The translations under genes were made by a program, and so were the position numbers. Below the pieces are notes generated by a model that was not told the DNA's origin, ran no database searches, and was given only the letters and a program-made list of their open reading frames with translations. Positions 5,276-54,963 of a stretch of DNA of 64,000 nt are shown one piece after another (position 1 is the stretch's first letter; each line of letters starts with the position of its first letter). The stretch is from an uncultured virus (IMG/VR IMGVR_UViG_2061766007_000234). Its lineage: Duplodnaviria; Heunggongvirae; Uroviricota; Caudoviricetes. Where the stretch lies: the IMG/VR virus record IMGVR_UViG_2061766007_000234. The stretch is one strand, 5' to 3'.

Positions 5276-5357
5276 TTGCATTTTTCGCTTGTGTGTTTTA
5301 TAATACACCCTAGAAGCTTTAAGCTCATGTATTTTTATACATGGGCTTTTTGTTTTT
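5276..5357 (+). promoter_or_regulatory. sigma70-type promoter plus leader attenuator with late-leader motif
   Basis: TTGCAT-17-TATAAT (5276-5304); AGAAGCTTTAAGCTC at 5312-5326 overlaps 12-bp terminator stem 5321-5348 followed by a T tract. Confidence 0.75.
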
Positions 5358-5376
5358 AAAGCTAAGAGGGGATAAA

Positions 5377-5544
5377 TTGGAAAACTGGTTTAGATGCCCA
5401 AAGTGCAACAAGCCGTTGCTCAAGATTACTGAAAACAGCGTGGTCAAGAATGAGATTTACTGCCGATGCTGCAAGACTTCTTTTGACGTTGAGATTGAGG
5501 GCTTGAAAGTGATTAAGGCAGAAAAGAAGGTAAAGACGGCTTAA
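5377..5544 (+). CDS. Mu Com-like zinc-ribbon regulator
   Basis: TTG start after GAGGGG; FRCPKCNKPLLKI...EIYCRCCKT follows the Com family pattern RCxxCxxLL...IxCxxC. Confidence 0.7.
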   Translation: MENWFRCPKCNKPLLKITENSVVKNEIYCRCCKTSFDVEIEGLKVIKAEKKVKTA

Positions 5545-5648
5545 CAGTGCCTTGAACTGTTTCCTATCGGTGGGCTTACATCGAAACTCTATCGGCGGAT
5601 TTCACCGAATGTCTTTTGGGGGTACAGACTAAAAAGAAACCACAACGC

Positions 5649-5720
5649 CGCAGGTTGGGGAAGTGGTATCCCGTGAGTTTCATTCGCTCGATGTCGGCGG
5701 TTCGATTCCGTCACCTGCTA
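5649..5720 (+). tRNA. tRNA-Met(CAT)-like gene, atypical, possibly pseudo
   Basis: Cloverleaf: acceptor CGCAGGT/ACCTGCT, D arm GGGA/TCCC, anticodon arm TGAGT/GCTCG with loop TTCATTC, T arm GGCGG-TTCGATT-CCGTC. Confidence 0.7.
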
Positions 5721-5757
5721 AAGCGCGCAAGCGCATTTCCTACAAGGAGCAGACACT

Positions 5758-6438
5758 ATGGAAGATACAAATCCACAGGCAACAGCAACGCCAGCTGATA
5801 ATGGCGGTTCTACACCTGCCAACACTCCGGCAGAAAACAAACAGACAAATGGAGCGGAAAATCAGCCTTACAAGACTTTTGCGACACAGGAAGAATTCGA
5901 CAGACATTCAGCCGGAATCCTTAACAATGCGCAGAAGAAAGCCGAAAAAGAGCTTCTTTCTTTGCTCGGTCTCAAGCCCGATGAAAAGGACAAGCTTCAG
6001 AAGTTCAAGGAAGCATACGACGCAACTTTGAGCGAATCGGAAAAGAAGGCAAAAGAGCTTGAAGCACTTACCACAGAAACGGCAGGGCTTAAAGCAAGAA
6101 ACGCTGAACTTGAAGCGACAATTTCAGCTCTTACAAAGGCAACAGGCAAGAAAGCCGAGGACGTTTCAAAAATCGTCAAAATGGCAAAAGGGCTTGTTGA
6201 TGAGAATACGACAATGGAACAGGCTTTGGAACAGGTTTTTGCAATGTCAACATCAAAAGAACCCGAAACCAAGCCGACACCGAAGGGAACACCGCCTGTA
6301 GAATCTTCAAGCAAAGCCCCGGAGGAAAACCCTTTTAAGACAGGGAATCTTACGGAGCAGGGCAAGATTTACAAAGCTGACCCTGAAAAAGCTCGTGTTT
6401 TGTATAAAGAAGCCACGGGCAAAAACGCACCGTGGTAA
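5758..6438 (+). CDS. capsid scaffolding protein
   Basis: Low-complexity N-terminus, TQEEFD, coiled coil, ENPFK..NLTEQ C-terminus; directly before capsid gene. Confidence 0.85.
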   Translation: MEDTNPQATATPADNGGSTPANTPAENKQTNGAENQPYKTFATQEEFDRHSAGILNNAQKKAEKELLSLLGLKPDEKDKLQKFKEAYDATLSESEKKAKELEALTTETAGLKARNAELEATISALTKATGKKAEDVSKIVKMAKGLVDENTTMEQALEQVFAMSTSKEPETKPTPKGTPPVESSSKAPEENPFKTGNLTEQGKIYKADPEKARVLYKEATGKNAPW

Positions 6439-6453
6439 AAAATACGGCATTAT

Positions 6454-6486
6454 GAACCTTTAAGGTCTGCCAATAGAACTTGAAGG
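6454..6486 (+). promoter_or_regulatory. late-leader motif in SD-sequestering hairpin (capsid)
   Basis: GAACCTTTAAGGTCTG; CCTTTAAG pairs with CTTGAAGG covering the SD. Confidence 0.7.
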
Positions 6487-6496
6487 AGAAAGCCGA

Positions 6497-7777
6497 ATGG
6501 CAGACAAGGTAACAAAACTTACAGATGTTATCGTTCCTGAACTCTTTTCACAGTACGTTCTGGAAAAAACAAAGGAAAAATCAGAGCTTATCGCTTCTGG
6601 TGCTATCGAAAGCAATCCGCTTCTTGACCAGTTGGTAAACGGCGGCGGCAACACAATGAAAATGCCTAAGTGGAACGACCTCACAGGTGAATCACAGGTA
6701 TTCAGTGAAAGTGCCGACATCGAAACTGACAAGATTACGGCTCACAAAGAAATCGCAACACTCTTGCTCCGCGCTAGAGGTTGGTCAGCACATGACTTGT
6801 CGGCAGCTCTTGCCGGTGATGACCCGATGCAGCGCATTGCTGAACGTGTTGCAGACTGGTGGGTACGCGATGAAAAGCGTATCGTTATGTCTATTCTCAA
6901 AGGCGTTTTCGCTTCGGCAGATATGGCAGACCACGTTCTCGACATTACAGGCGGCGTAACAACCGGTATTTCTGCAAAAGCTATCCTTGACGCTAAACAG
7001 CTCATGGGCGACGCTGCGGAAGATTTGACATTGATTTATATGCACTCTGCCGTATACACAGAATTGCAGAAACAGCAGCTTATCACATTCGTACAGCCTG
7101 CTGATGCAAAAGTTAAAATGCCTACTTACCTCGGTTATAACGTAATCTGTGACGATTCTGCTCCTGTTGAAATTGGGGCAGGCGGAACAAAGGGCGTTTA
7201 TACAGTTACATTGACCGGAACAGTTACAGCTGACGATGTTATCACAGTAGCAGGTGTTGCACACACAGTTACAGCTGCTGAAGATACACTCGCTAAGATT
7301 GCAGCAGGCATTGCAGCTGACCTTAACGCAACAGTTGCCGTAACAAATGTATTTACAGTTACAGTTGCAGACGCAGTTATTACTTTCACACAGAAAGTTG
7401 CCGGAACAGGCGCACAGCCAACAGCAAGCGTTTCTGCAAGCGCAACCGAAACAGCAACAGCTGCTACTACAACAGCAGGCGTTGCAGGCGTTGACAAGTT
7501 CACAACATACTTGCTCTCACGCGGTTGTATTCAGAGAGGTTCCGGCACACCAGTCGGCTTTGTTGCAACAGAAACATTCCGCAATGCAAAGAAATCTGTT
7601 GATGAACTTTACAATAGACAGGCAAAAGTTCTTCACCCGAAGGGCATGAACTGGACTTCTGCTTCACAGGAAGATGAGACACCTTCTAACGCAGAACTTG
7701 CAACAGGTTCAAACTGGACACGTGCAGCAGCCGAATCTAAACAGGTTGGCATGATAGCACTCGTACACACTCTCTAA
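6497..7777 (+). CDS. major capsid protein with Thr/Ala-rich inserted domain
   Basis: TKLTDVIVPELF, MPKWNDL.G, MHSAVY..L.KQ and LHPKG motifs of SPP1/P22-coat-like capsids. Confidence 0.9.
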   Translation: MADKVTKLTDVIVPELFSQYVLEKTKEKSELIASGAIESNPLLDQLVNGGGNTMKMPKWNDLTGESQVFSESADIETDKITAHKEIATLLLRARGWSAHDLSAALAGDDPMQRIAERVADWWVRDEKRIVMSILKGVFASADMADHVLDITGGVTTGISAKAILDAKQLMGDAAEDLTLIYMHSAVYTELQKQQLITFVQPADAKVKMPTYLGYNVICDDSAPVEIGAGGTKGVYTVTLTGTVTADDVITVAGVAHTVTAAEDTLAKIAAGIAADLNATVAVTNVFTVTVADAVITFTQKVAGTGAQPTASVSASATETATAATTTAGVAGVDKFTTYLLSRGCIQRGSGTPVGFVATETFRNAKKSVDELYNRQAKVLHPKGMNWTSASQEDETPSNAELATGSNWTRAAAESKQVGMIALVHTL

Positions 7778-7790
7778 GGGGAAATAGCGC

Positions 7791-8030
7791 ATGGTAACGG
7801 AGTACAACCGTAACCTCATCATGCAGCGCAGACTTGCAGCGGAAAAAGCGGCACTGGAACTTGAAAAAGCCGGTGCTGTGGTTTCCGCTAATGCAAAGCC
7901 TGTTGAGGTTAAACCGGCAGAAGAAAAGCCTGTTGAAAAGGCTGAATCAGTAGCGGTAAAAGCTGAAAAAGCAGAAACCGCTAAACCAAAGAAAACTGAC
8001 GCTGAAAAGCTCAAAAAAGGCAGAAAGTAA
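7791..8030 (+). CDS. small Lys/Ala/Glu-rich head-associated protein
   Basis: AGGGG upstream; position after capsid gene. Confidence 0.65.
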   Translation: MVTEYNRNLIMQRRLAAEKAALELEKAGAVVSANAKPVEVKPAEEKPVEKAESVAVKAEKAETAKPKKTDAEKLKKGRK

Positions 8031-8414
8031 ATGTCAGACGGAAGCGAAGAAAAGACAGAGTTTGATTACCTCGCAACAGTGAAGGTACTGCTGGGCATTA
8101 CTGACACATCGAAAGATTCTATTCTTGAGGTGTACGTAGGCTTAACAAAGCAGTCCATATTGAACTACTGTAACCGTTCCGACCTTCCCGAAGCACTGAA
8201 TTATACTTTGTGCCAGATTTGCGCTGACACATACCGCGATACAACGGCAAAGGCAAGCGGAGCTGTTGTGTCCGGGGCTGTCAGCTCTATTTCAGAGGAC
8301 GGACGGACGGTTTCGTTCTCAAACAGCTTGGATTTGATTAAGACTGCCGCAGAGGACAGAATTGCACATACAACCGAGCTGAACCGATACAAAAAACTAT
8401 ACAGGTTGGACTGA
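8031..8414 (+). CDS. head-tail connector (gp6/gp15-like adaptor)
   Basis: VKVLLGI.D...D.IL, ILNYCNR.DLPEAL, VSSISEDG.TVSF, LNRYKKL. Confidence 0.88.
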   Translation: MSDGSEEKTEFDYLATVKVLLGITDTSKDSILEVYVGLTKQSILNYCNRSDLPEALNYTLCQICADTYRDTTAKASGAVVSGAVSSISEDGRTVSFSNSLDLIKTAAEDRIAHTTELNRYKKLYRLD

Positions 8415-8416
8415 AT

Positions 8417-8587
8417 ATGAGCGGAAAGTCTGCAAGGCAGATACGCAAGGAAGCAAACGCCCTGCGCACAAGCTTGACACAGAACAGGATAGAAACGGCA
8501 AGGGATTTAATTTCAGAGCTTGAAAAAGCCCCTTTCAAATACCGCTTTCTTTTTGCAATGAAACTAATCTTTCACAGGAAAAAATAA
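8417..8587 (+). CDS. hypothetical basic protein (56 aa)
   Basis: Translated by hand, MSGKSARQIRKE...LIFHRKK; fills gap in late operon. Confidence 0.55.
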   Translation: MSGKSARQIRKEANALRTSLTQNRIETARDLISELEKAPFKYRFLFAMKLIFHRKK

Positions 8588-8602
8588 ATGGGGAATTAAT
8601 AA

Positions 8603-8689
8603 AAATATTGTTGTAAGGACAAAAGCCAGCTACTTCTGATATTCCGTATATATCTAACTTACAGCAATATTTCCTTTATACGGGAGGAA
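8603..8689 (+). promoter_or_regulatory. pseudoknot-like leader hiding the SD of the HNH gene
   Basis: 15-bp stem 8603-8617/8658-8672; loop TTCCGTATA (8642-8650) pairs with TATACGGGA (8677-8685). Confidence 0.55.
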
Positions 8690-8691
8690 TT

Positions 8692-9336
8692 ATGAAAATT
8701 ATAGATTTAACAGGTCGAAAGTTTGGTAGACTTACAGTTACAAGTTTGAATCCTAAAAGAAACAAATACAAAAAGCTTTTATGGAATTGTAAATGTGATT
8801 GTGGTAATACTATAGTTGCAATAGGAAGTTTACTAAAAAGAGGCAATATAAAAAGTTGTGGCTGTTTATATAAAGAAACCAGACCTTTTGTAGCGCAAAA
8901 ACACAAAGGTAGTAAAACGAGATTATATTGTTTGTGGAATGGAATTAAAGCACGTTGTTTCAACAAAAACCACAAAGAATATAAATTTTATGGTGGAAAA
9001 GGTATAAAGATTTGTGAAGAATGGCTTGATTTCGATACATTCCGTAAATGGGCGTATAATAATGGTTATGAAGAATGTTTAACAATAGAGCGAAAAGATA
9101 TAAACAAAGATTATTGTCCCGAAAATTGTACTTGGATTACAAAAAGTGAACAAACATGGAACAAGTCAACAACAGTGAGAGTTTTCTATAAAAACAGATA
9201 TTTGACTATAAAGGAATTATCTGAAGAAACTGGACTTGGTGTAAATCTTCTAAGGTCAAGGATTCGACATCAAAAGTGGTCTGTTGAAAAAGCTGCAAGC
9301 GAACCTTTACGATTGCAAAAGGGGAAAAACTGCTAA
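8692..9336 (+). CDS. free-standing HNH-type homing endonuclease
   Basis: DLTGRKFGRLTV, WNCKCDCG, SCGC, YGGKGIKICEEW, TIERKD.N.DYCPENC.W; more AT-rich than neighbours. Confidence 0.85.
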   Translation: MKIIDLTGRKFGRLTVTSLNPKRNKYKKLLWNCKCDCGNTIVAIGSLLKRGNIKSCGCLYKETRPFVAQKHKGSKTRLYCLWNGIKARCFNKNHKEYKFYGGKGIKICEEWLDFDTFRKWAYNNGYEECLTIERKDINKDYCPENCTWITKSEQTWNKSTTVRVFYKNRYLTIKELSEETGLGVNLLRSRIRHQKWSVEKAASEPLRLQKGKNC

Positions 9337-10286
9337 TGAGTTTTGATTTTGGTCAAATCGGAAATATAATTTCGAAAGTCTGCGATGGAGATTACATAGA
9401 CATAAAGCGCGATATTGACGGCAAATTGCAGGAAGTCTACTCAAACATTCCGTGCCATGTCGCTTACGCTTCAACCGACAACCCAGACCCGAAAACCGTA
9501 GACATAAAACCGATTATACAGAGCATAACTGTACACTGTCAGCTTTACGTTGACATAAGGAACAATGATTTTATCGTAGCAAAGAAAATCGGCTCTGACG
9601 GCTCTCTTATCGCCACTTACAGCGGACGTTGCGGAAATCCTGTCGTAAGTCAAGGCAGAAAGAAAGTGCTCATGCAGATGAACGGAACTGAAAACGAAGA
9701 GCCGACACCAGTACCGCCGAAAGACAGTGCCGAAATCAGAATCAGCTTTGTTTCTGACGGCTCGGCTATACAGGATTCACAGACACGTAAAGCAGAAATC
9801 GGGAAGCCTTTTGAACTGCAAGCCCCTGCAATAGAGGGCTATGAAGCTGTAGAATGTTATATTGACGGCGTTTTCGTAGAGGGAACAACGGCAAGGATTG
9901 AAAGCGTTGAAAAGGACGCTGAAATCCAGTTCGTGTATGCGGTTTCGGATAAAGCCGATTATTTCCGATACCTTGTCTACGGTCTTTACACTAAAGATGA
10001 CGGCTCATTCTCTTCGGGCTGGCACTTATATAAAAAAATCAATATTGAAAATTACACGCTTGAGGGCGGCACATATATAATCACCTGCAAGGACGAAGTT
10101 ATAGAACACGCTGACGGCGGCCAGATGCTCCAGATTGAAGAAGGGGCGCGGATTGTCATCGGCAAAAACTATGCAGTGGTGAGCGAAGTAATTTCAAGGG
10201 AAAACGGCTCGGTAACATTTGCAGCCGAAACATTCACGCCCGATGAAGCGCAGGCAAAAGCCTATGCCTGCAACTGGTACGATTAA
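9336..10286 (+). CDS. head closure-like protein with MucBP-like C-terminal extension
   Basis: N-terminal VYSNIPC beta-barrel-like region in neck gene position; APAIEGYE...IQFVY MucBP-like repeat after a Pro linker. Confidence 0.55.
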   Translation: MSFDFGQIGNIISKVCDGDYIDIKRDIDGKLQEVYSNIPCHVAYASTDNPDPKTVDIKPIIQSITVHCQLYVDIRNNDFIVAKKIGSDGSLIATYSGRCGNPVVSQGRKKVLMQMNGTENEEPTPVPPKDSAEIRISFVSDGSAIQDSQTRKAEIGKPFELQAPAIEGYEAVECYIDGVFVEGTTARIESVEKDAEIQFVYAVSDKADYFRYLVYGLYTKDDGSFSSGWHLYKKINIENYTLEGGTYIITCKDEVIEHADGGQMLQIEEGARIVIGKNYAVVSEVISRENGSVTFAAETFTPDEAQAKAYACNWYD

Positions 10287-10705
10287 TGGGCTTTCTGGTT
10301 GACTTCTCACAGCTCGAAAAGTTCGTAAAGGACATGAAGATAACCGAAAGGGATTTCAACGGCTTTCTTGAAGATTTCCTTTACAGAATGGCTTTAGAAG
10401 TTCTAAGGGAAACAAGACCGAAAACACCAGTAGACACAGGCGCGTTAAAAAACGCATGGGCTTTGGGCAGTATCACATCTTCCGGCAGGGATATATCAAT
10501 CGAGATACTGAACCCTATGGAATACGCAACTGACATAGAATACGGACACAGGCTCGTAGCAGGCACAGGCGAAAAAAAAGTGGAAGTAGGCTGGTACGAC
10601 GGCAAGTTCATGCTGAAAACTTCGATTGACAACGTGCAGTCGAAGATGCCGGCAGCTTATGACATTGCATTCAAGAATTTCTGCAAACAGCACGGAATAG
10701 CTTAA
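10286..10705 (+). CDS. HK97 gp10-like tail completion protein
   Basis: TPVDTGALKNAW, NPMEYATDIEYGHR, GWYDGKFML. Confidence 0.9.
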   Translation: MGFLVDFSQLEKFVKDMKITERDFNGFLEDFLYRMALEVLRETRPKTPVDTGALKNAWALGSITSSGRDISIEILNPMEYATDIEYGHRLVAGTGEKKVEVGWYDGKFMLKTSIDNVQSKMPAAYDIAFKNFCKQHGIA

Positions 10706-10741
10706 TCTTGCAATAATTCGCAAATGCTGATAAATTGAATT

Positions 10742-10901
10742 AGACAGGCATCCTAAATCTGTCAGGACTTCATAGGAGGTCTCACCAGACTTTGGTATTG
10801 ATTGATACCACCACAGTCTAACAGTTTTCTTTTAAACTTTTCTTCCAGTTCAGTTTAAAGAAAATTTGCCTTGAGCGTTGCCGCGCTTAAGGCATTTTTT
10901 T
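10742..10901 (+). ncRNA. candidate stand-alone sRNA (four hairpins plus terminator)
   Basis: TTGCAA-17-TAAATT at 10708-10736, consecutive stems, terminator TGCCTTGAGCG/CGCTTAAGGCA plus T8; no credible ORF. Confidence 0.55.
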
Positions 10902-10949
10902 ACCTTAAAAAGTATAGCATTTTCTGCAAATATGAATTATAATATCCCC

Positions 10950-10995
10950 AGAACCTTAGAAGGTCGGATTTCTTGCGAAGTCCGACCTTTTTTTT
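10950..10995 (+). terminator. leader terminator overlapped by late-leader motif
   Basis: TATAAT 10938-10943; AGAACCTTAGAAGGTC then 13-bp stem AAGGTCGGATTTC/GAAGTCCGACCTT and T tract, immediately before tail genes. Confidence 0.8.
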
Positions 10996-11010
10996 GTTTT
11001 CGGTAGCTGA

Positions 11011-11472
11011 ATGACGGAGTTGAAAAGCGAGGAAGTAAAGAACGCGATAGCGGCAAGGCTCTTGCAGATTGCACCTGCGGCGGTCTATAAGGAAGCGGTC
11101 ACAGTACCGCTTTATCCGCACTTTTTCATTCATCTTCTTTCGGTTTCTGATGAAGAAGACAGAAAGAACTTTCATTTCCTTACTTATTCATTCGATTTAA
11201 GATACCGCGTTGCAAGCGATTCGAGCACGGATTTAAGGCTTCAGCAGAACTTGGATTCAGTTGCGCTCAAGCTTCTTTCGGGACTTAACATAATCGACTG
11301 CAATGACGTGAAGATTCGTATCGAAGACAAAAATTATGAAAAAACTGACGGCGTGCTTCACTTTTTCTGCAAGGTCAGAATGGCTGTTTATGATGAAGAC
11401 GAAACGGCAGACCATGTAAAGATGCAAAAACTTTTTGAAAACGTGGAGGTGGAGAATGCACTACAAGCATAA
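11011..11472 (+). CDS. tail terminator protein (XkdJ/DUF6838-like)
   Basis: VY.E.V....P.FFI, FDLRY, DGVLHFF; precedes sheath. Confidence 0.8.
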   Translation: MTELKSEEVKNAIAARLLQIAPAAVYKEAVTVPLYPHFFIHLLSVSDEEDRKNFHFLTYSFDLRYRVASDSSTDLRLQQNLDSVALKLLSGLNIIDCNDVKIRIEDKNYEKTDGVLHFFCKVRMAVYDEDETADHVKMQKLFENVEVENALQA

Positions 11473-11722
11473 ACCGACAATCATTGAAGCCATAGAGGTA
11501 CAGAAAAGAAATCTCATGGATATCGAAGATTTTGTCGGTGAAAACGTGGTGGTTGTATATGAAAAAGACAGACAGGGTAATGTCACATACACAATTACAC
11601 AAGTCGACAAAATTACTTTCAAGGTGTTCCCGAATGACTATCTTATCAAAAATAAGGACGGCATTTCATTCACAGTAATGAGCAAGGGCGACTTTGAATA
11701 CAATTACGAGGAGGCTGACTAA
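11456..11722 (+). CDS. hypothetical protein (PGDYG-like)
   Basis: Y.HKP..IEA and PNDYLIK...F...YEE pattern; GGAG upstream. Confidence 0.6.
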   Translation: MHYKHKPTIIEAIEVQKRNLMDIEDFVGENVVVVYEKDRQGNVTYTITQVDKITFKVFPNDYLIKNKDGISFTVMSKGDFEYNYEEAD

Positions 11723-13332
11723 TGGCTGGCGGAATATGGACGGCACAGAACGAGGTTCGTGCAGGTGCTTATATCAATTTTACACCGACAAGAAAGAACC
11801 CGATGACTGTCGGAGACAGGGGAATCGTAGCTTTGCCTGTCGAATTGCCGTGGGGCAAGGAAGGTGCGCTTATCGAAGTACTTTCTGAAGATTTTGCAAA
11901 CGGAATCGCAAGAAAGGATATCGGTCTTACAGTAGACAGTGACGGTACAAAACGAATCCGGGGCGCTTTGTCTTATGCGTACAAAGGTCTTCTTTACCGC
12001 ATGAACAAAGGCGGCGCAAAGGCAAGCCTGTCACTCGGCAGCCTTTATTGTGAAGCTGTTTATTCTGGTGAACTTGGAAACCGTATCAAGATTGCGGTTA
12101 TCGACAATGAGAACGATACTTACACAGTTATCACATATCTTGACGGTTCTGTTGTCGATTCACAGACAGTTGTGTCATTGCCCGAACTTTCGGCAAATCC
12201 TTATGTCTTGTTTAAGGAATACCAGAAGTTCAAGGTGACAATCGGCGGCACAGTTGCTACAGGCGATACATTTACAGTAGAGGGTGTTACCTATACAGCG
12301 ATTGAAGACGACACACCGGCACTTGTTGCGTCTGGTCTGGCGGCAGCCCTCAATGCGGATTCGACATTTACTGCAAAATATACAGCGGTTGTTTCAAACG
12401 GCAATGACATTCTTATTACACAGGTTGTTGCAGGTGTCGGAGCAAAACCGGAAGTTTCTGTTGAATCAACAGGCGCAACTATTACAGTTGTTGACGCAGA
12501 TACAGAATTTACACCGAATGCAGGTGCATCTCTTACCGGAGGCACAAACGGCACTTATACAGAATCTGACGCTTACACAGAGTTTCTTTCGCTTCTTACA
12601 ACAGCAAAATATCAGGTTGCAGCCTGTTTCTCTGACAGTGCCACTATTAAGGGCAAAATGCAGACATTCATCATGTCACAGCGTGACGATGAAGGCATTT
12701 ATGTTCAGTGTGTTGTCGGTGATTATGATGGCGCTGACAGCGAGGGAACAATCAACTCTGTTTCCGGCTGTACAATCAACGGCGAAGATTATGACAAATA
12801 CGATTTCGTATCTATTGCAGCCGGTATGACAGCAGGCGCACGTCTTAATCAGTCAAACACTGCAAGACAGATTATCGGTGCTACAAAGATTATCGGCGAG
12901 CTTGACAGCACGGGTATTAAGAAGGCTTTGCAGAACGGCAAGTTCCTTCTTTCTGCCTCAAGTTCCGGTAAAATCAAGGTTGAGCAGGATATTAACTCGC
13001 TGCACACATTCACAGCTGAACGTGACAAGAATTTCAGCAAGAACCGCGTAATCCGCACTCTTGACGAAATCGGCACAACCGTTAAGGAAACTTGGGAAGA
13101 TACTTACATGGGCAAGGTTGACAACAACACTATGGGACGCGACCTGTTCAAATCTGACCTTGTTGAATACGGAAACGAGCTTGCGCGCACTTCTGCAATC
13201 GAGGAGTTTGACGCTAACGATGACATCTCGGTTAAGAGAGGTAATGATGTGGATTCTGTTGTCGTAGACTGGCGCATTCAGCCTATTGATAGCATGGAGA
13301 AATTGTATCTCACGGTTATCGTGGCTAACTGA
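11722..13332 (+). CDS. tail sheath protein (XkdK-like) with inserted domain
   Basis: MAGG.W..QN.VR.GAYINF, L.GGTNG, EQDINS, FSKNRVIR.LD, DSMEKLY. Confidence 0.93.
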   Translation: MAGGIWTAQNEVRAGAYINFTPTRKNPMTVGDRGIVALPVELPWGKEGALIEVLSEDFANGIARKDIGLTVDSDGTKRIRGALSYAYKGLLYRMNKGGAKASLSLGSLYCEAVYSGELGNRIKIAVIDNENDTYTVITYLDGSVVDSQTVVSLPELSANPYVLFKEYQKFKVTIGGTVATGDTFTVEGVTYTAIEDDTPALVASGLAAALNADSTFTAKYTAVVSNGNDILITQVVAGVGAKPEVSVESTGATITVVDADTEFTPNAGASLTGGTNGTYTESDAYTEFLSLLTTAKYQVAACFSDSATIKGKMQTFIMSQRDDEGIYVQCVVGDYDGADSEGTINSVSGCTINGEDYDKYDFVSIAAGMTAGARLNQSNTARQIIGATKIIGELDSTGIKKALQNGKFLLSASSSGKIKVEQDINSLHTFTAERDKNFSKNRVIRTLDEIGTTVKETWEDTYMGKVDNNTMGRDLFKSDLVEYGNELARTSAIEEFDANDDISVKRGNDVDSVVVDWRIQPIDSMEKLYLTVIVAN

Positions 13333-13344
13333 TAAAACGGCTGT

Positions 13345-13374
13345 AGAACCTTCAAGGTCTGCCTAAATTGAAGG
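13345..13374 (+). promoter_or_regulatory. late-leader motif in SD-sequestering hairpin (tail tube)
   Basis: AGAACCTTCAAGGTCTG; CCTTCAA pairs with TTGAAGG covering the SD. Confidence 0.7.
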
Positions 13375-13386
13375 AGAAAAAGCCGA

Positions 13387-13845
13387 ATGTACATGAAGGC
13401 AAGAGATGCGATAAGCGGCAAAGAAGGCTCGCTTTACGCAACTATAGACGGTAAAGTTTTAGAGGTTGCGGAGTGCAAAAGCATTAACGCAAAAATCACA
13501 AAGAATAAAGCTGAATTTAAGGCTTTGGGCTACCGCGGAACACAGCACAAGGCGACAGGCTGGAGCGGTACAGGTACTCTTGTTATCCATTACGCAAGTT
13601 CACGCTGGACTAAGATGATGATGGATTACATCAGAACCGGCAAAGACGTTTATTTCAAGCTTCAGATTACAAACGATGATCCGACTTCTCAAATCGGCAA
13701 GCAGCGCATTACGCTGATTGACGTAAATCTTGACGAAGCGGAAATTGCAAAACTGGACGTAGATTCAGACATTCTTGACGAATCTATGAACTTTACATTC
13801 AGTGACGCTATCCTGAACGAAGAATTCTCAGCACTTAAGGAGTAA
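13387..13845 (+). CDS. tail tube protein (XkdM-like)
   Basis: DAISGKEG, HKATGWSGTGTL, QITNDDPTS.IG.Q, FTFSD. Confidence 0.93.
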   Translation: MYMKARDAISGKEGSLYATIDGKVLEVAECKSINAKITKNKAEFKALGYRGTQHKATGWSGTGTLVIHYASSRWTKMMMDYIRTGKDVYFKLQITNDDPTSQIGKQRITLIDVNLDEAEIAKLDVDSDILDESMNFTFSDAILNEEFSALKE

Positions 13846-13852
13846 TTAATTT

Positions 13853-14245
13853 ATGAGTTCATTAGATGATTTTCTGGCATTGGACGATGTTAAGGACATT
13901 TCACAGTCTGTGCAGGAACGTATTAACGGCAAAGTTTTTGATTTTGAAATCCGTCCGCTTACAGCTGACGAACACAAAGAGTTTCAGAAACGCTCGTATA
14001 CAATCGGCACAAAAGGCAAGGTTTCTTTCGATGTAATGAAATACAAAATGCTTGAAGTCTTGAACTGTGTAATTACGCCTGATTTTTCCGATGCCGATTT
14101 TCTGGCAAAGGCAAAATGCACATCGGCAGAAGAGTTTTATACAAAAAAGATTCCTGCCGGTGTTATCGCCGACTTAAGCGAAAAGATAGAAGCACTTTCG
14201 GGCTTTGATTCTTACGAAATGGAAGTTGACGAAGCAAAAAACTGA
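13853..14245 (+). CDS. tail assembly chaperone (XkdN-like)
   Basis: V..PDF.D, LSGFD, ends EAKN; between tube and tape measure. Confidence 0.88.
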   Translation: MSSLDDFLALDDVKDISQSVQERINGKVFDFEIRPLTADEHKEFQKRSYTIGTKGKVSFDVMKYKMLEVLNCVITPDFSDADFLAKAKCTSAEEFYTKKIPAGVIADLSEKIEALSGFDSYEMEVDEAKN

Positions 14246-14412
14246 TTGAAGAGGACGGCGAGGCAATTTACTGCATGTACGCCGTTCTCAACTTTCACTG
14301 GACGCCGAAACAGTTTTTCGGCATGTCACGCCGAGAGCGTGCATTTGTAATCGCCTGTATAGATAAGAGGGTAAAGGCAGAAGAAGAAGAACTTCGGAAG
14401 TCAAAGAAATAG
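14236..14412 (+). CDS. -1 frameshift extension of tail assembly chaperone (gpGT-like)
   Basis: Slippery A AAA AAC at 14236-14242; -1 frame open as LIEEDGEAIYCMYAV...ERAFVIACID...KSKK to TAG 14410-14412. Confidence 0.8.
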   Translation, partial: KKLIEEDGEAIYCMYAVLNFHWTPKQFFGMSRRERAFVIACIDKRVKAEEEELRKSKK

Positions 14413-14413
14413 A

Positions 14414-16249
14414 ATGGCACAGATAACAACAGCATTCGGTTTTAAAGACAATATTTCATCTAGCCTTAATATGCTCAACAGAACGCTTCAGGAGCTTAAC
14501 AAATCTCTTAACGCCACAAAAGGTGGTGCAGGCGAAGCAAGTCAAGGGCTGGACAAGCTCGGCGGAAAAGCTGGCAGCGTTTCGACAAAGCTCCTCAATT
14601 TCAATATGGCAACTCAAGCTTTCCGAGCCGTAAAAGGTGCGGTCGATTCAGTAACCAGAAGCATGGGTGAAATGTCGGCTGCATACAACTTTCAGATGGA
14701 ACAAGAAACAAAACTTGAGACCGTAATGAAAAACCACATGAAAGCAAGTACCGCGCAGATACAGTCTGTAAAGGACTATGCAAGCGAATTGCAGAAATCT
14801 GGTATATACGGCGATGAGATGATTTTGCAGGGCGCACAGGAGCTTGCTACCTATGTTGAAGACCCCGAAGTGCTTAAACAATTAATGCCGACACTCAACT
14901 CAATGCTTGCGCAGGGCGTGGGCATGAACGCAACCTCAAGGGATATGCAGTCTTATGCGACAATGCTCGGAAAGGTAATGCAGGGGCAGGTCGGCGGCAT
15001 GTCTAAGCGCGGTTATAAATTCACCGAAGCCGAAGAAGAGATACTCAAGACAGGCACGGAATTGCAGAAATTGCAGGTATTGCAGAATAATGTTTTGGGC
15101 AATTTCGGCGACATGAATAAAGCTCTTGCACAGACACCGCAGGGGCAGATAATTCAGCTTAACAACAGAATAGGCGACCTAAAAGAAGATATAGGCAAGG
15201 CTTTAATTCCTTTTAACCAATTATTCTCAATAGCAACATCAAACTGGAAAATAACTTTTTATGAAACGATAATAAAGGGCTTGAATCTGCTTAGACAGAA
15301 CATCGACAAAGTTATGACGGTTATGACTTTGTTAGGCATTGCCGCTATTGCTTTAGCAGGGTATTTCGTATATCTAAAGGCAACTGCAATATCTACGGCA
15401 GTAGCTACAGCTGTTGCATGGATAAGTGCTCATCTAACAATAATTGCAGTTGTTGCTGTTATAGGCATAGCAATAGTTGGATTGATTTATGTACTTTCTA
15501 AATTAGTCGGAGCGGCGAATGTATTAGGTGCTGTTTTCGGTGGTGTTTTCGGATTTATAAAAACAATAATAGTTGATACCTTCAAAAGTGCTTATAACAT
15601 GGTTGTTCCTATTATCAACCAGTTTTTAACGGTGGCAGAGTTTTTTTATAACGTATGGAAACATCCGATTGATTCATTGAAAGCCTTGTTTTTCAATTTT
15701 GTCAGCAGCATTATTGACATGATTGGACCGATTAGTGGTGCTATAGACGGCTTGCTTGGAACACATTTAACAACCGCGGTCAACGGCATGAAGAAAGGCA
15801 TTGAAAACGCAAAAAAAAGTGCAGTCAGTGATGATTATAAATCTATAAAACGCCTCGGTTTCATGCAGACAGAAGGTATCGTACAAGGCACTGTGAAAGG
15901 TGCGCAATACGGCATGGATAAGGCAAATGAATTGAACGATTTTATTAAAAATTTTGATAAAAATAGTTTAATTCCAAACTCGCCTGCAATCGAGGGGCTT
16001 GACTTCCAGACGGATTCAAGCGGCGCACTCGTAACGGCTGACAAAAATGTATTGGAGCTTTCGGACGAATACAAGACGCTTCTTTCCGAGCAGGCTAGAA
16101 AGAAGTTCAACCTCTCATTCACGCAGATGACACCGAAAGTTGATTTCGGCGATGTAATTATGAACAATGCCGCGGACGGCGAATCATTGCTTGAGGCTCT
16201 TGCAGAAGGTCTTGAGCGCGTGGCAACTTCACAGCTTAGGAGTGCATAA
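14414..16249 (+). CDS. tape measure protein
   Basis: Long helical protein with central hydrophobic segments, after chaperone. Confidence 0.9.
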   Translation: MAQITTAFGFKDNISSSLNMLNRTLQELNKSLNATKGGAGEASQGLDKLGGKAGSVSTKLLNFNMATQAFRAVKGAVDSVTRSMGEMSAAYNFQMEQETKLETVMKNHMKASTAQIQSVKDYASELQKSGIYGDEMILQGAQELATYVEDPEVLKQLMPTLNSMLAQGVGMNATSRDMQSYATMLGKVMQGQVGGMSKRGYKFTEAEEEILKTGTELQKLQVLQNNVLGNFGDMNKALAQTPQGQIIQLNNRIGDLKEDIGKALIPFNQLFSIATSNWKITFYETIIKGLNLLRQNIDKVMTVMTLLGIAAIALAGYFVYLKATAISTAVATAVAWISAHLTIIAVVAVIGIAIVGLIYVLSKLVGAANVLGAVFGGVFGFIKTIIVDTFKSAYNMVVPIINQFLTVAEFFYNVWKHPIDSLKALFFNFVSSIIDMIGPISGAIDGLLGTHLTTAVNGMKKGIENAKKSAVSDDYKSIKRLGFMQTEGIVQGTVKGAQYGMDKANELNDFIKNFDKNSLIPNSPAIEGLDFQTDSSGALVTADKNVLELSDEYKTLLSEQARKKFNLSFTQMTPKVDFGDVIMNNAADGESLLEALAEGLERVATSQLRSA

Positions 16250-16989: not shown

Positions 16990-16991
16990 CA

Positions 16992-20975: not shown

Positions 20976-20985
20976 GGAGTAAGAA

Positions 20986-22509: not shown

Positions 22510-22587
22510 CAGGCTTTAATTAATAACTGCACTTGTTAAATTGCGTTGCTTGTTTTTAAGCAATAATTAGACTATACTTAAAATAAA

Positions 22588-22617
22588 AGAACCTTCAAGG
22601 TCTGTAACGGAGGTTCT
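22588..22617 (+). promoter_or_regulatory. late-leader motif in SD-sequestering hairpin
   Basis: TATACT 22573-22578; AGAACCTTC pairs with GGAGGTTCT directly before ATG 22618. Confidence 0.75.
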
Positions 22618-22971
22618 ATGCAAAATTCAACAAACTATCAAATGAATCTGCCCGAAGGGTTTGACCAGTTCGATATTGCCCATTTCAATCAGAATACAAG
22701 ATTTCTTGATTCAAAAATCAAGTCATTGGAAAATGAAACTGACAAAATTGTTTCAACGAAAAAAAAGCTGACAGGGACGTTATCGACAGGACAGACATAC
22801 GTATCTTTTCAGGACAGCGCAATCAACAACAATTCGTATATCGACGTGTATACAAGCGTTTACGGCGTAAATCCGCGAGATATTACGCTTACTGGAAATA
22901 CTGTTATTGTATATTTCGCAGCGCAAACTTCCTCAGTTGATGTTTCAATTGTAGTAGAAAATTATCAGTAA
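22618..22971 (+). CDS. short tail-fibre-like protein
   Basis: STNY.MNLPE..D..DI..FN.N...LD N-terminus typical of fibre proteins; beta-rich C-terminus. Confidence 0.65.
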   Translation: MQNSTNYQMNLPEGFDQFDIAHFNQNTRFLDSKIKSLENETDKIVSTKKKLTGTLSTGQTYVSFQDSAINNNSYIDVYTSVYGVNPRDITLTGNTVIVYFAAQTSSVDVSIVVENYQ

Positions 22972-22983
22972 AAGGAGAAATAT

Positions 22984-23820: not shown

Positions 23821-23821
23821 T

Positions 23822-23861
23822 TACAGAATCTTTACAAAAACAATACAGAATCTTTACAAAA
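23822..23861 (+). repeat. 18-bp direct repeat, probable activator site
   Basis: TACAGAATCTTTACAAAA at 23822 and 23844 (22-bp period), upstream of TGCTATTAT extended -10 at 23878. Confidence 0.75.
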
Positions 23862-50475: not shown

Positions 50476-50599
50476 AAAAAGGTAATCAATCAGCTGATTA
50501 AACCCGATTCAGCTTAATTAAAGACATTGTATTCCGCTAACCTGTGCAAAATTCGCATTTGCGAACTATTGTTTTTTTTTTTTTTTGTATAGGTTTAAC

Positions 50600-51187
50600 A
50601 TGGAAGCATTAAAGATTAACTGCGAGTGCAAGGATTTTCTTGAACTCGCCGAACTTACCGAGTTTCAGGGCGGTCTGAAACAGCGGAGTCAATCAGATGT
50701 TGATAAAATCGTAAAGTCCATTAAGAAATACGGTTTTTCTTTTCCGTTCTTTGTCTGGAAACACGATGGCATAAACCACTGCCTTGACGGTCATGGGCGG
50801 CTTCTTGCACTTCATAAGCTAGACGAGCTCGGTTTCATTATCCCGTCATTGCCTGTAGTCTATGTGGACTGCAAAGACGAACAGTCTGCAAAAGACCTTC
50901 TTTTAAGGCTCAATTCCCATTACGGTACAATGACGAAAGAAAGCGTTCTTGAATTTATCGGTGACTTTGAAATAGATGTTTCTGATTTGGAACTGCCATT
51001 CGGAGTTATTGATTTTTCTGATACAGAGATAGACCTTGATTTTAAAGATGAAGCAAACAAGATAGATGACATAAAAGACTTTTTCGATTTTACCATTACA
51101 TTTCCAATTATATATAAAGAGCGGCTTGAAAAATATGGTCGAAGAAAAATAGAGCAAGATATTATAAATAAATTGGAGGAAATGTAA
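50600..51187 (+). CDS. ParB/Srx-like N-terminal domain protein
   Basis: SIKKYGFSFPFFVW, LDGHGRLLA, LPVVYV. Confidence 0.85.
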   Translation: MEALKINCECKDFLELAELTEFQGGLKQRSQSDVDKIVKSIKKYGFSFPFFVWKHDGINHCLDGHGRLLALHKLDELGFIIPSLPVVYVDCKDEQSAKDLLLRLNSHYGTMTKESVLEFIGDFEIDVSDLELPFGVIDFSDTEIDLDFKDEANKIDDIKDFFDFTITFPIIYKERLEKYGRRKIEQDIINKLEEM

Positions 51188-52182
51188 TGCCAAGATGTGG
51201 AAGTCAGTGTATTTTATGTGATGTACCAATTAGGTTTGATACATACGTAGGTTGTTCTCATGCCTGTAAATATTGTTTTGTTAATAGAAAAAATGATATT
51301 ACAAAAATAAAGATAGGTGAAAGCCCACAACAATTGTTAGATTTTATAAAAGGCAAAAGAAATCAAGAAACAAAATGGTGTGATTGGAAAATACCTTTGC
51401 ATATTGGTGGTATGTCAGACCCATTTCAACCTTGTGAAAAAATTCATAAAAATACATTAAAATGTTTGAAGGTACTAGCTGAGACAAAATACCCATTTAT
51501 AATAAGCACAAAAAATGTATTGCAGACAACACCAGAGTATCTTGAAGTTCTTAAAGATTGTAATTTTGTATTTCAAGAAAGTATGGTTTGCTCGAAGTTT
51601 GATGATTATGAAAAAGGTGCACCAACATTTGAAGAAAGGCTAAAGGCAATTAAAATTATGGGTTCTGTTGCTAAAAGAACTATAGCAAGGTGTCAGCCGT
51701 GGGTCCCGCAAGTGCAGGGAGATATAATTAAGAATTTGCCAAGATATAAAGAAGCCGGTTTATATGGTGTAATATTTGAGAGTATGAAATACGGACAAAA
51801 AAAGGCAAATACAGTAAAATTCTACGGTGATTATGTTTACCCTAAAGATTATCTTATTCCATATTGGCAACAACTGAAAGAAGTGTGTCATAAAAATGGT
51901 TTAGTGTTTTTATCTGGAGAAAACAGACTTCGTACAATGGGAGATAGCTTAACTTGTTGCGGTTGTGAGGGGTTAGAAGGGTTCGAAGTTAGCACATTTA
52001 ATTTAAACTCTATAAAAGGTAATAGGGAAATAAAAATAACACCGGCAATGAAACAAATCGGTAATGGGAAGGTATTAAAAGCTATAGACCAGACTCAGAA
52101 AATGAGTTTGACTATAAATATACACAGCTATGAAGATTTGGCAAAAAATTATATGTACAAACATTTAGATATTGTTCAATAG
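51187..52182 (+). CDS. radical SAM protein (spore photoproduct lyase-like)
   Basis: CSHACKYC (CxxxCxxC), GGMSDPFQP.E, ISTK, E.GAP...ERL. Confidence 0.9.
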   Translation: MPRCGSQCILCDVPIRFDTYVGCSHACKYCFVNRKNDITKIKIGESPQQLLDFIKGKRNQETKWCDWKIPLHIGGMSDPFQPCEKIHKNTLKCLKVLAETKYPFIISTKNVLQTTPEYLEVLKDCNFVFQESMVCSKFDDYEKGAPTFEERLKAIKIMGSVAKRTIARCQPWVPQVQGDIIKNLPRYKEAGLYGVIFESMKYGQKKANTVKFYGDYVYPKDYLIPYWQQLKEVCHKNGLVFLSGENRLRTMGDSLTCCGCEGLEGFEVSTFNLNSIKGNREIKITPAMKQIGNGKVLKAIDQTQKMSLTINIHSYEDLAKNYMYKHLDIVQ

Positions 52183-52198
52183 CTTTGTAATTAAAATG

Positions 52199-52641: not shown

Positions 52642-52643
52642 AC

Positions 52644-52820
52644 ATGGCACGGCACGGCGGTAAAAGGGAAGGTGCAGGCAGACCGAAAACAGACAACGGC
52701 AAGAGCGTCCAGATTGCTTTCAGAGTGACAGAGGAACAGAAACAAATGATACTAGAAAAAGCTGAAAGAGAAGGACTGACATTGAGCCAGTATCTTCTGA
52801 AAGTCGTGCTGTCTGAATAG
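52644..52820 (+). CDS. ribbon-helix-helix (MobC-like) DNA-binding protein
   Basis: HGGKREGAGRPK, IAFRVTEE.K..I..KA...GLTLSQYL. Confidence 0.8.
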   Translation: MARHGGKREGAGRPKTDNGKSVQIAFRVTEEQKQMILEKAEREGLTLSQYLLKVVLSE

Positions 52821-53046
52821 TTATATACGCACCATGATTTGATGATTGTGGTGCGTTTTTTTCTTGTCTGTAAACATAAAAAAACAATTAAAAATACATT
52901 AAAAGACACTGTTTTTAATGCAAAAACTAGCAATAATTGCAAAAATGCGAATTATAGTGTATGATGATAATAGAAAATCTACTATATAAACTATTTTGTT
53001 TACATCTTTGATATTGTTTTTCAATATTGATACCAAAGGGGATTGA

Positions 53047-53394
53047 ATGCCGTTTAAGCCGGGAGTATCTGGAAACCCAAACGGAAGACCTAAAAAGGGT
53101 GATTCTTACACAGAGTACATAGATAAGGCAGTAAAGAAGCTTAAAAGCGTACAGAAAGGAAAGGACGGTTCTGTCATTAATAAATATAAGGGCAAAGCAG
53201 TTCTTGCTATGGCACTGGTAGACCTTGCAACAAATAAGGAATATCCGCCACAGATACGCTTGCAGGCGATAAAAGAAATAATCGAAAGAAATGACGGCAA
53301 AGCTCCGCAGTATGTTGATATGCTGGCACAGGTCAACGGCGAGAATAACAATAGTGTGAATATAACAGTTCACGAAATAGCGGAGCTTAAATAG
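53047..53394 (+). CDS. terS: terminase small subunit (DUF5681-like), module A
   Basis: FKPG.SGNP.GRPK, AIKEI.ER.DGK..Q; directly before TerL. Confidence 0.8.
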   Translation: MPFKPGVSGNPNGRPKKGDSYTEYIDKAVKKLKSVQKGKDGSVINKYKGKAVLAMALVDLATNKEYPPQIRLQAIKEIIERNDGKAPQYVDMLAQVNGENNNSVNITVHEIAELK

Positions 53395-54707
53395 TGAATT
53401 ATGAATTACCGCCTTTTGATGTATTCATGCGTGATTATATAGGGGAAGAAAAAGACCCCGAGCAGAAATACAGACAAGTAATGCTGTCAAAAAAAAGGTA
53501 TATAACGAACAAAGGCGGACGAGGTAGTAAAAAATCTTGCGATACGGCTCTGAAAATCATTTATTTTATGATGTATTATTACTTTATGTATAAAGTAAAG
53601 CCGCATGTCCTTGTTATAAGACGCTATTACAACACACACAGAAACTCGACAAGAGCACAGCTTATATGGGCAATAGAAAAGCTCGGAGCACGTGAATTAT
53701 GGAATATTCCGAAGGGTGAGAATACTTTGACTTTCAAGTATTCCGGTCAGCAGATTCTTTTCCGTGGAATGGACGACCCTCAAAGTATTACATCTATTAC
53801 AGTATCAGACGGCAATTTGTGCTGGGTTTGGATAGAAGAAGCCTTTCAGATAGTAAATGAAGAAGATTTTAATAAAATAGATATGTCAATCCGCGGCAAG
53901 TTACCGCCGGAATTGTTCCACCAGTTCATTCTTACCTTCAATCCGTGGAGCGACAGGCATTGGCTGAAAGCGCGGTTCTTTGACGCCCCGGACGAAAACA
54001 CGCTTGCCATAACAACAAACTACATGATGAACGAGTTTCTTTCTGAATCTGACATACGGCTGTATGAGATTATGAAAGAACGCTACCCCAGACGCTACCG
54101 TATAGAGGGCTTGGGCGAATGGGGAATTGCAGAGGGCTTGATTTTCGAGAACTGGCATGAAGAAGACTTCGACATAGACGAGCTTATAGAGAAGAACAGG
54201 AACAAGCGGACGGCAAGGGGGCAGACGGCTTTCTTCCAGTGCTGCGGCCTCGACTTCGGATACACAGACCCTTCAGCTTATGTTGCCCTTTACGCCGACA
54301 TTAAGGACTATAAGCTTTACGTCTATTACGAGATGTACGAAATACAGATGGAGAACCGCAAGATTGCAAGTAAACTTATTCAAGACGGTTTCGGCGACTG
54401 CATTATTCTTGCCGATTCAGAAGACCCTAGAACAATAAGGGAGCTTTCTTTATTGGGCTTGCACGGCATAAGGGGAGCTAAAAAGGGAAGCGGCAGTGTG
54501 CTCGGCGGAATTCAGAAATTGCAGGATTACGAGATAATAGTACACCCTCGCTGTCAGCACTTCATAGAATCAATATGCAATTACGCATGGAAGAAGGACA
54601 GGGTAACGGATAAAATTCTTCCCGAACCCGAACACGAGTTCTCGCACCTCATGGACGCTATGCGCTATGCTACGGAAAATCTGCAACGCTTCGGAATACA
54701 GGTGTAG
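53394..54707 (+). CDS. terL: terminase large subunit, PBSX family, module A
   Basis: KGGRGSKKS Walker A, WIEEA Walker B, LTFNP, GLDFGY.DP, ADS.DP, H.MDA.RYA. Confidence 0.95.
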   Translation: MNYELPPFDVFMRDYIGEEKDPEQKYRQVMLSKKRYITNKGGRGSKKSCDTALKIIYFMMYYYFMYKVKPHVLVIRRYYNTHRNSTRAQLIWAIEKLGARELWNIPKGENTLTFKYSGQQILFRGMDDPQSITSITVSDGNLCWVWIEEAFQIVNEEDFNKIDMSIRGKLPPELFHQFILTFNPWSDRHWLKARFFDAPDENTLAITTNYMMNEFLSESDIRLYEIMKERYPRRYRIEGLGEWGIAEGLIFENWHEEDFDIDELIEKNRNKRTARGQTAFFQCCGLDFGYTDPSAYVALYADIKDYKLYVYYEMYEIQMENRKIASKLIQDGFGDCIILADSEDPRTIRELSLLGLHGIRGAKKGSGSVLGGIQKLQDYEIIVHPRCQHFIESICNYAWKKDRVTDKILPEPEHEFSHLMDAMRYATENLQRFGIQV

Positions 54708-54710
54708 AAA

Positions 54711-54887
54711 ATGAAAGAAATACTTTGCACAACATGCGCCGCATGGGTGGACTGCGGCAAGAAAGACGGCAAGCCATACGGATTCTGTCTGTGTCAAGAC
54801 TTGTTCACTTATACAGCAGAGACGAAATGCGCCGACTATGTGAACGGCACGGCAATAACGGAAGAAGAGTTTGAAAACGCAAAATAA
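54711..54887 (+). CDS. small Cys-rich protein (58 aa)
   Basis: Translated by hand, MKEILCTTCAAWVDC...; between TerL and portal. Confidence 0.55.
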   Translation: MKEILCTTCAAWVDCGKKDGKPYGFCLCQDLFTYTAETKCADYVNGTAITEEEFENAK

Positions 54888-54905
54888 TTTGCCCGAGCAA
54901 ATTAT
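54884..54905. repeat. palindrome TAATTTGC-N4-GCAAATTA, copy 4
   Basis: ATAATTTGCCCGAGCAAATTAT, upstream of portal promoter. Confidence 0.85.
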
Positions 54906-54924
54906 AGACTTTTGAAAAACACTG

Positions 54925-54963
54925 TGCTATACTTTCATTAGAACCTTTAGGGTCTGTTTAGGT
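54925..54963 (+). promoter_or_regulatory. extended -10 promoter plus late-leader motif (portal)
   Basis: TGCTATACT 54925-54933; AGAACCTTTAGGGTCTG 54940-54956; ACCT can pair with AGGT SD (weak). Confidence 0.65.

Follow-up and report, generated by a model that had tools for sequence, protein, structure and literature searches.

Com of phage Mu is the closest described counterpart of the system considered here. PMC6483171, in its accessible part, describes the target as a hairpin closed by an invariant C-G pair, with 3-4 bp of variable stem and the loop motif CC(N)2-3GAG, lying beside an inhibitory start-codon stem. As far as the available portions of the other papers go, Com acts at translation on one adjacent gene (PMC3299994, PMC6240691), com-like genes stand beside single target genes (PMC3299994, PMC6240691, PMC4684702) and the general role of Com-like proteins remains to be explored (PMC6240691). 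We analysed 64,000 nucleotides of DNA from an uncultured tailed virus (IMG/VR record IMGVR_UViG_2061766007_000234, Caudoviricetes), here called the window, which carries a gene for a 55-amino-acid (aa), four-cysteine zinc ribbon and six intergenic copies of a short RNA motif. The original prediction held that this protein binds the motif, antiterminates its own leader and the tail operon, and de-represses translation of virion proteins. Our analysis supports that interpretation: from sequence comparison and folding we infer binding and activation, and consider it likely that a Com-like activator binds the hairpin and works in both modes.

Both proteins are small four-cysteine zinc ribbons with a late function, and the variable stem and invariant C-G closing pair of the Mu target recur here; overlap of the target with an inhibitory Shine-Dalgarno/start stem is predicted in 18 leaders. 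Compared by eye, the native Com 19-mer can adopt the fold with a basal G-C pair and bulged A described below. The loop is usually CU-N2-3-AAG rather than the Com form, with an exact CC-TA-GAG in one of 28 sites (L194); the stem is about 1 bp shorter, and 18 residues, versus 16 in Com, separate the CxxC pairs. Whereas Com serves a single neighbouring gene, the window has six sites, two of them at terminators, and core head and tail genes would be the targets. Unlike the com-mom operon, no mom-like gene adjoins; tRNA, scaffold and capsid genes lie downstream.

Other parallels concern termination. The RAT site of BglG/SacY overlaps the foot of a terminator, and TRAP is one protein acting on both termination and translation, as a repressor. 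These differ from the present case in having other folds and serving host metabolic operons, and TRAP represses where we propose activation. ANTAR proteins such as EutV bind small antiterminator-forming hairpins, and one protein can serve a multi-site regulon (PMC3369931, available in part). They recognise two hairpins as a phosphorylation-activated dimer in bacterial nitrogen metabolism, whereas the phage considered here has a single bulged hairpin and a 55-aa zinc ribbon that is unrelated to ANTAR; no ANTAR domain was found among the 77 window proteins scanned. As in lambdoid Q/N control, a terminator close to the promoter would keep the late genes silent until a phage protein has built up. 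Q is described as being loaded onto RNA polymerase by a DNA element and as acting processively, whereas here every terminator is overlapped by an RNA site of its own, ribosome-binding sites use that site too, and some sites are remote from promoters and show RNA-type covariation; the same 77 proteins include no Q-family member. By the tests made, the switch resembles Com at ribosome sites and ANTAR/RAT at terminators and is a member of none of these systems. Our literature search, with most subscription papers outside its reach, returned no description of such a regulon or of Com-type zinc-ribbon antitermination, and the accessible parts of PMC2965389 and PMC5737381 make no mention of the motif.

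A bulged hairpin with covarying arms

The six copies (numbered 1 to 6, at 5313, 6454, 10951, 13346, 22589 and 54941) are real: all are present as predicted, each intergenic and each upstream of a late gene. A regular-expression count gave seven matches on the plus strand and none on the minus strand, with 0.12 and 0.03 expected per strand from 60 order-4 Markov simulations, and the motif is not equally common in coding or antisense positions. The seventh match (16845) lies inside a Dit-like gene, is unconserved in seven orthologues and has a covariance-model E of 1.6; we regard it as chance. The covariance model was built from 28 sites, including five of the six window copies, and the six were its sole window matches with E below 0.05; the copy outside the training set, 10951, scored E 0.036. 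The -10 boxes described ahead of four copies are TATAAT or TATACT, ending 7-10 nt upstream (Table 1). Three of these lie within 4900-24000, a range in which a consensus promoter scan reported none of them, so those three promoters are identified from the -10 box only.

As a putative recognition element the motif is conserved, but the ligand is best viewed as a hairpin and not as the linear word first described. The zinc-ribbon, capsid and scaffold proteins served as queries for collecting relatives, which were examined over their full length where possible. A gap-free alignment of sites gives the consensus G-[A/U/G bulge]-NN-C-(Y-N2-3-R-A)-G-NN-C, in which the basal G-C pair and the loop-closing C-G pair are invariant in 28 of 28 aligned sites. 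The two inner pairs vary (AU/GC and CG/AU/GC/UG/GU); 99.3% of cells are paired and 10 are changed on both strands of the stem, besides the G-U types, in a set chosen partly for pairing, so that this covariation statistic is partly circular. We added a second selection by position, comprising 20 distinct loci (23 given, three duplicates collapsed). In it the hairpin stands at the foot of 21 of 26 terminator-like stems adjoining the zinc-ribbon gene, and 19 of the 20 loci have at least one adjoining hairpin-terminator. Of the five misses, four are stems that surround a tRNA or precede the promoter; the fifth, in the G012 zinc-ribbon leader, is a true exception. Genome-wide, the hairpin is carried by 9 of 185 terminator-like sites, in agreement with the known sites, and by 0 of 37 in two phages that lack the zinc-ribbon gene.

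The terminator 3' arm changes along with the hairpin, so three strands covary. The compensatory change noted in copy 1 holds, as AG/CT and AC/GT paired versions occur within one phage, and relatives add GA/TC and G-U versions. Two paired versions in one phage, G-U pairs and an asymmetric bulge argue for recognition of RNA over DNA, and covariation across related phages supports recognition at the RNA level.

Alternative folds at terminators and ribosome-binding sites

Folding indicates that at each intergenic window copy the hairpin (ON fold) is incompatible with an OFF fold that is stronger. This OFF fold is an intrinsic terminator at some copies and, at the others, a stem burying the Shine-Dalgarno sequence and start codon. 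The terminators reported to overlap copies 1 and 3 were located at 5321-5348 and 10958-10991. At such sites the hairpin 3' arm forms the bottom 5-6 bp of the terminator stem, and when the hairpin is held in folding the residual terminator stem is shorter and set back from the U tract. Depending on the phage, the gated gene is the zinc-ribbon gene, the scaffold gene, the tail operon or a baseplate gene.

Two further observations concern the terminator sites. In G012 (L070), whose zinc ribbon is divergent (58% identity), two terminators, in the zinc-ribbon leader and before the baseplate sheath-initiator gene, keep the motif 3' arm but no recognisable 5' arm, which possibly reflects altered specificity or a decaying switch. 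When transcription reads through 5313-5376, bases immediately past the U tract can pair with the 5' half of hairpin 1, and in one folding window flanking bases also paired with the Shine-Dalgarno sequence. This would be a possible second lock on the activator's own gene, although it is not clearly conserved.

The translational sites are the leaders of the capsid, tube, portal, fibre-like and large terminase genes, in which the free leader pairs the motif with the Shine-Dalgarno/start region. When leaders were folded with and without the hairpin held, the cost of opening the ribosome site was lower with the hairpin in 18 of 18 leaders from five gene types (8.0-17.9 kcal/mol free versus 4.4-8.0 with the hairpin held). 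In the window, opening costs are 9.0-12.8 kcal/mol for four motif genes, whereas 46 further window genes have a median of 6.1 (p = 0.003). Orthologous leaders that lack the motif, 15 in number (16 rows minus one mis-hit), range from 2.7 to 8.7 kcal/mol. Shuffling the motif removes most of the block: 0, 0, 8 and 4 of 100 shuffles reach the observed cost at the four motif genes.

The pairings differ in part from those originally drawn. The portal pairing had been called weak; instead it comprises 9 bp at -15.4 kcal/mol, joining the 3' half and downstream bases to codons 6-8, and it recurs in six of six portal leaders folded. Pairing of the first half with the Shine-Dalgarno region was confirmed at 22589, but at the capsid gene there is a second OFF fold, just as favourable, in which the start codon is paired with the 3' half. 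The outer stem shared by the capsid and tube leaders is present as a GGC, but this has two partners: a GCC just past the motif, which extends the hairpin in the ON fold of six capsid/tube leaders, and, in five, an alternative GCC ahead of the start codon, with which it can pair in the OFF fold. In a relative, the ON-fold arrangement is seen upstream of the tube gene on an RNA-library contig. RNA-library contigs from bovine gut cover the scaffold-capsid region and, among the pieces listed, none lies over the zinc-ribbon leader; since they show no ends or strand and may contain DNA, they are uninformative on termination.

The zinc-ribbon gene, its distribution and its surroundings

Four cysteines are invariant in the 55-aa protein, and its predicted structure is all-beta, with good confidence (pLDDT 87). 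Its description as Com-like stands in so far as its profile aligns to Mu Com, but it falls below the Pfam Com family. The hhalign comparison with Mu Com, its sequence taken from the annotated Mu record, gave 77% probability and 43% identity over 30 columns, and 95% with distant homologues. PHROG 6417, 'translational regulator', matches the protein (E 0.0098), and its Atlas neighbours are named Com (0.92-0.93) or KTR. The best Pfam match is Cys_rich_KTR (PF14205), whose Pfam entry gives no function, at 21.7 bits and below the 25.5 cut-off, which several distant homologues exceed (e.g. P0020, 28.0 bits). Fold searches returned a generic zinc ribbon only (best Z 4.1 in PDB, best E 0.004 in BFVD) and are uninformative on function; an NCBIfam scan gave nothing specific, and tblastn of GenBank phages gave three weak matches only.

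Some features of the gene vary among homologues. Its ATG lies about 7 nt after a -10-like box in L003, L004, L006, L007, L009, L010, L020 and L194, giving an apparently leaderless mRNA, and the portal genes of G003 and G015 likewise look leaderless. Cys_rich_KTR-type homologues (L196 of G074, P0031, P0032) end in Glu-Pro repeats, and in L196 the end of the gene merges into a terminator; this may be a form of the switch built on direct repeats.

By sequence comparison, hairpin and gene share their pattern of presence and absence in the clade, and no relative within it was found to keep the motif without the Com-like gene. G013 and G015 have neither, nest separately inside the gene-bearing clade (scaffold tree, quick method) and hold the late cluster from the terminase to the helix-turn-helix (HTH) gene; in them no terminator precedes the scaffold gene and no covariance-model match falls below E 0.15. 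Distant scaffold loci (L210-L222) also lack gene and hairpin, but these are outgroups and not independent losses. Among all open reading frames (ORFs), the zinc ribbon alone tracks the motif in four of four query genomes, and in G388 it occurs together with its leader switch outside any head operon.

The genome-wide regulon proposed for this phage holds for it and its close kin but not for the whole group, the multi-site dual-mode form belonging to one subclade; the positive-feedback leader is likewise present in this phage and close kin and confined to one subclade. There are seven intergenic sites in G001/G002, six in the window phage and several in G043-G045. The low-GC sister subclade has one hairpin-terminator, which follows a zinc-ribbon gene that is apparently leaderless and precedes the scaffold gene. 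Sequence comparison shows a regulon that appears to have started with a single gated terminator, expanded to six or seven sites and been lost twice. A second candidate hairpin near the HTH gene (G003, G007, G009) lies inside a short ORF in G009 and was not counted.

Beyond the clade, the strict pattern was found in six viral records: one relative, L042, L050, L055, one likely chance match and G042. In L042, L050 and L055, which are unrelated phages, a small cysteine-rich gene stands just upstream of the hairpin-terminator, and in L042 and L050 the site precedes the portal gene; as background, 0 of 97 terminator-like sites in unrelated loci adjoin a small cysteine-rich gene. The L050 protein weakly matches PF10122, and a search for its relatives returned only itself. 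At the L055 site (9834-10053, G041) the hairpin-terminator comes after a gene for a 46-aa CxxC...CxC protein, and the surrounding genes are tandem leucine-rich-repeat-like ones, not virion genes. Other small zinc ribbons occur elsewhere in the unrelated-phage record G042 (L056).

Among 401 genomes of the host family a convincing hairpin-terminator occurred only in G043, which has the gene, while three other matches look like chance beside seven control matches; the pattern misses variants carried by G307 and G388. In GTDB genomes, motif plus terminator matched 80 loci, mostly coding or without phage context; four, in Treponema, are convincing, and intergenic matches in other hosts were left aside. 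The bare 17-mer had 113 matches in viral contigs, and this word is not widespread as a regulatory site, since 75 of 80 examined were coding and several intergenic copies occurred only in L254 (G002 phage).

By gene content (Pfam scan of 77 proteins, and PHROG scan) the window represents a contractile-tail tailed phage, with calls for scaffold (5758), capsid (6497), tail terminator (11011), sheath (11722), tube (13387), baseplate genes, terminase (53394) and SPP1-type portal (54969). It consists of assembled pieces with N runs at 4106, 26831, 48175, 50300 and 57227; copy 6 lies on a separate piece across N runs, so that its contiguity with the other five copies is presumptive. The last piece, 57237-64000, holds a second large terminase gene (59645), a different portal type (61118, Phage_portal_3) and no significant hairpin copy, and is probably another element binned with this phage. 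Since motif-bearing relatives were found inside three Treponema sp. genomes and RNA-library matches to the window come from bovine gut metagenomes, a rumen Treponema is the likely host, and the relatives are probably Treponema phages. A gathering-score scan of the window against Rfam matched only a tRNA, so the motif is in no Rfam family; tRNA-like sequences occupy the equivalent gap in L001, L014, L177, L180 and L194. Among neighbouring genes, an HNH endonuclease gene (8692-9336, PHROG 374) is inserted among the head-completion genes. In the tail protein at 20986-22509 the second domain is of the Mtd type and a weak FGE-sulfatase-like domain is present as well; such a fold is typical of variable receptor-binding proteins; no reverse transcriptase was found among the window proteins scanned. 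A ParB-like gene and then a radical SAM gene (50585-52182), possibly a DNA-modification pair, lie directly upstream of the terminase genes.

Table 1. Coordinates of the hairpin copies, their alternative folds and adjoining genes in the window
Feature	Position	Strand	Remarks
-10 box TATAAT	5299..5304	+	8 nt before hairpin 1; -35 weak, absent from promoter scan
Hairpin copy 1 (compensatory G-C variant)	5313..5326	+	Leader of zinc-ribbon gene
Intrinsic terminator	5321..5358	+	5' arm is the 3' half of hairpin 1
55-aa four-cysteine Com-like zinc-ribbon gene, TTG start	5377..5544	+	Proposed activator
tRNA-Met(CAT)	5649..5720	+	Between zinc-ribbon and scaffold genes; bystander
Head scaffold gene	5758..6438	+	Own hairpin-terminator in most relatives; here covered by copy 1
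Hairpin copy 2 (6454-6467) with outer GGC/GCC stem of ON fold	6446..6471	+	Capsid leader
OFF-fold partners: capsid Shine-Dalgarno region and start codon	6476..6505	+	
Major capsid protein gene	6497..7777	+	Candidate translational target
Plain terminator closing head operon	10867..10894	+	Upstream of tail promoter
-10 box TATAAT	10938..10943	+	7 nt before hairpin 3
Hairpin copy 3 (6-nt loop)	10951..10965	+	Tail operon leader
Intrinsic terminator overlapping hairpin 3	10958..10997	+	
Tail terminator gene, first in gated tail operon	11011..11472	+	Sheath next at 11722
Hairpin copy 4 (13346-13359) with outer GGC/GCC stem	13339..13363	+	Tail tube leader
Tail tube gene	13387..13845	+	Candidate translational target
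-10 box TATACT	22573..22578	+	10 nt before hairpin 5
Hairpin copy 5	22589..22602	+	5' half pairs with next gene's Shine-Dalgarno
117-aa gene downstream of baseplate genes	22618..22971	+	No Pfam or PHROG match; 'fibre-like' from position
-10 box TATACT	54928..54933	+	7 nt before hairpin 6
Hairpin copy 6 (U-G variant)	54941..54954	+	Portal leader
SPP1-type portal gene	54969..56486	+	Candidate translational target
OFF-fold partner in portal codons 6-8	54984..54992	+	Stem encloses Shine-Dalgarno and AUG

Competing explanations and the proposed mechanism

Several observations weigh against activation by the zinc ribbon. By itself the hairpin is a weak structure (about -2 kcal/mol), and folds in which it is held are less stable than the terminator folds by about 13 kcal/mol, so the switch must be kinetic, the protein trapping the hairpin as it emerges. 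The drop in opening cost on holding the hairpin arises partly by construction, as any forced hairpin removes pairing options; the motif-free orthologues come mostly from lower-GC phages, which fold less; and the capsid OFF stem shows no compensatory change among four sequences. The G012 zinc-ribbon leader has the terminator but lacks the 5' arm of the hairpin. Co-loss amounts to two independent events, in records that are 83% (G013) and 44% (G015) complete, and in G042 (78% complete; L056 10001-10048) a hairpin-terminator precedes a probable head gene with no Com-like gene recognised. Finally, neither the protein nor 24 homologues matched PF10122, Zn_ribbon_Com (cut-off 22.9 bits), at E 0.1 or below, and nothing in G002 did, while Mu Com itself scores 36.8 bits.

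The hairpin switch could be real and yet be operated by another phage protein, such as the HTH protein (23584) or an MS2-coat-like structural protein, or by a host RNA-binding protein, with the zinc ribbon a regulated passenger. The G042 record would fit such a factor; we nevertheless think it unlikely, given that the motif-free G013 and G015 retain every one of the HTH, capsid, scaffold and tail genes, that no other ORF tracks the motif consistently, and that the 401 host-family genomes revealed no such regulon in the host, their one convincing case having the gene. Very little probability attaches to the motif being instead a DNA site near late promoters, bound by a zinc-ribbon transcription factor or used for Q-like loading, with incidental RNA folds. 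The nearly inverted repeat and the start of four of six window copies, and of many in relatives, 7-10 nt after a -10 box would suit it, and four-cysteine phage proteins such as P2 Ogr bind DNA. Yet pairing is kept where sequence is not (AG/CT, AC/GT, GA/TC and G-U versions), the unpaired bulge breaks the symmetry, terminator arms change together with the hairpin, and at the loci scanned the capsid, tube and scaffold copies have no -10 box within 25 nt.

That the protein is solely an antiterminator, the copies at ribosome sites being processing, stability or neutral elements, would account for the terminator-only low-GC subclade, for the absence of capsid and tube copies from G012 and for orthologous fibre-like leaders that differ in which motif half is paired in the OFF fold. 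We hold this to be very improbable as well: burial of the ribosome site recurs in 18 leaders of five gene types and depends on motif bases, and Mu Com, in the accessible part of its description, works at translation (PMC6483171). A switch needing no protein at all, governed instead by how fast the RNA folds, by temperature or by ribosomes that halt at the stop codon of the zinc-ribbon gene, finds some footing in the low-GC subclade, where the hairpin starts within about 30 nt of that stop codon and overlaps it in L179. Other copies, however, stand at transcript 5' ends without an upstream ORF or after a tRNA, the invariant bases and conserved loop point to a ligand, and the hairpin is too weak to compete unaided, which makes a protein-free switch extremely improbable.

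With the Com-like activator as our preferred reading, the late genes would lie behind host-type promoters and be OFF by default. The zinc-ribbon protein would bind the nascent hairpin and block the bottom 5-6 bp of the terminator, allowing RNA polymerase to read through, and on the capsid, tube, portal and fibre-like mRNAs the same binding would free the ribosome sites. In this phage, where the activator gene lies behind its own hairpin-terminator, the arrangement may give a positive-feedback threshold or timer. In the sister subclade, with the AUG 7 nt after the -10 box, the protein may open one terminator before the scaffold-capsid operon and so set a delay.

If this is true, a 55-aa protein and a 14-nt movable hairpin would together make a site-specific antiterminator, a translational activator and a self-amplifying timer, and gating transcription or translation with so little would be a very compact synthetic-biology part. 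Whether Com-like zinc ribbons are general master regulators of phage late genes, acting wholly on RNA and replacing Q-, sigma- or Ogr-type control, is in our estimate evenly balanced. The present case gives the Com-like family a testable job, the RNA-level timing of virion assembly. If the scheme is general, the hairpin-terminators beside Com-like genes in L042, L050 and L055 would extend it past the Treponema-phage clade.

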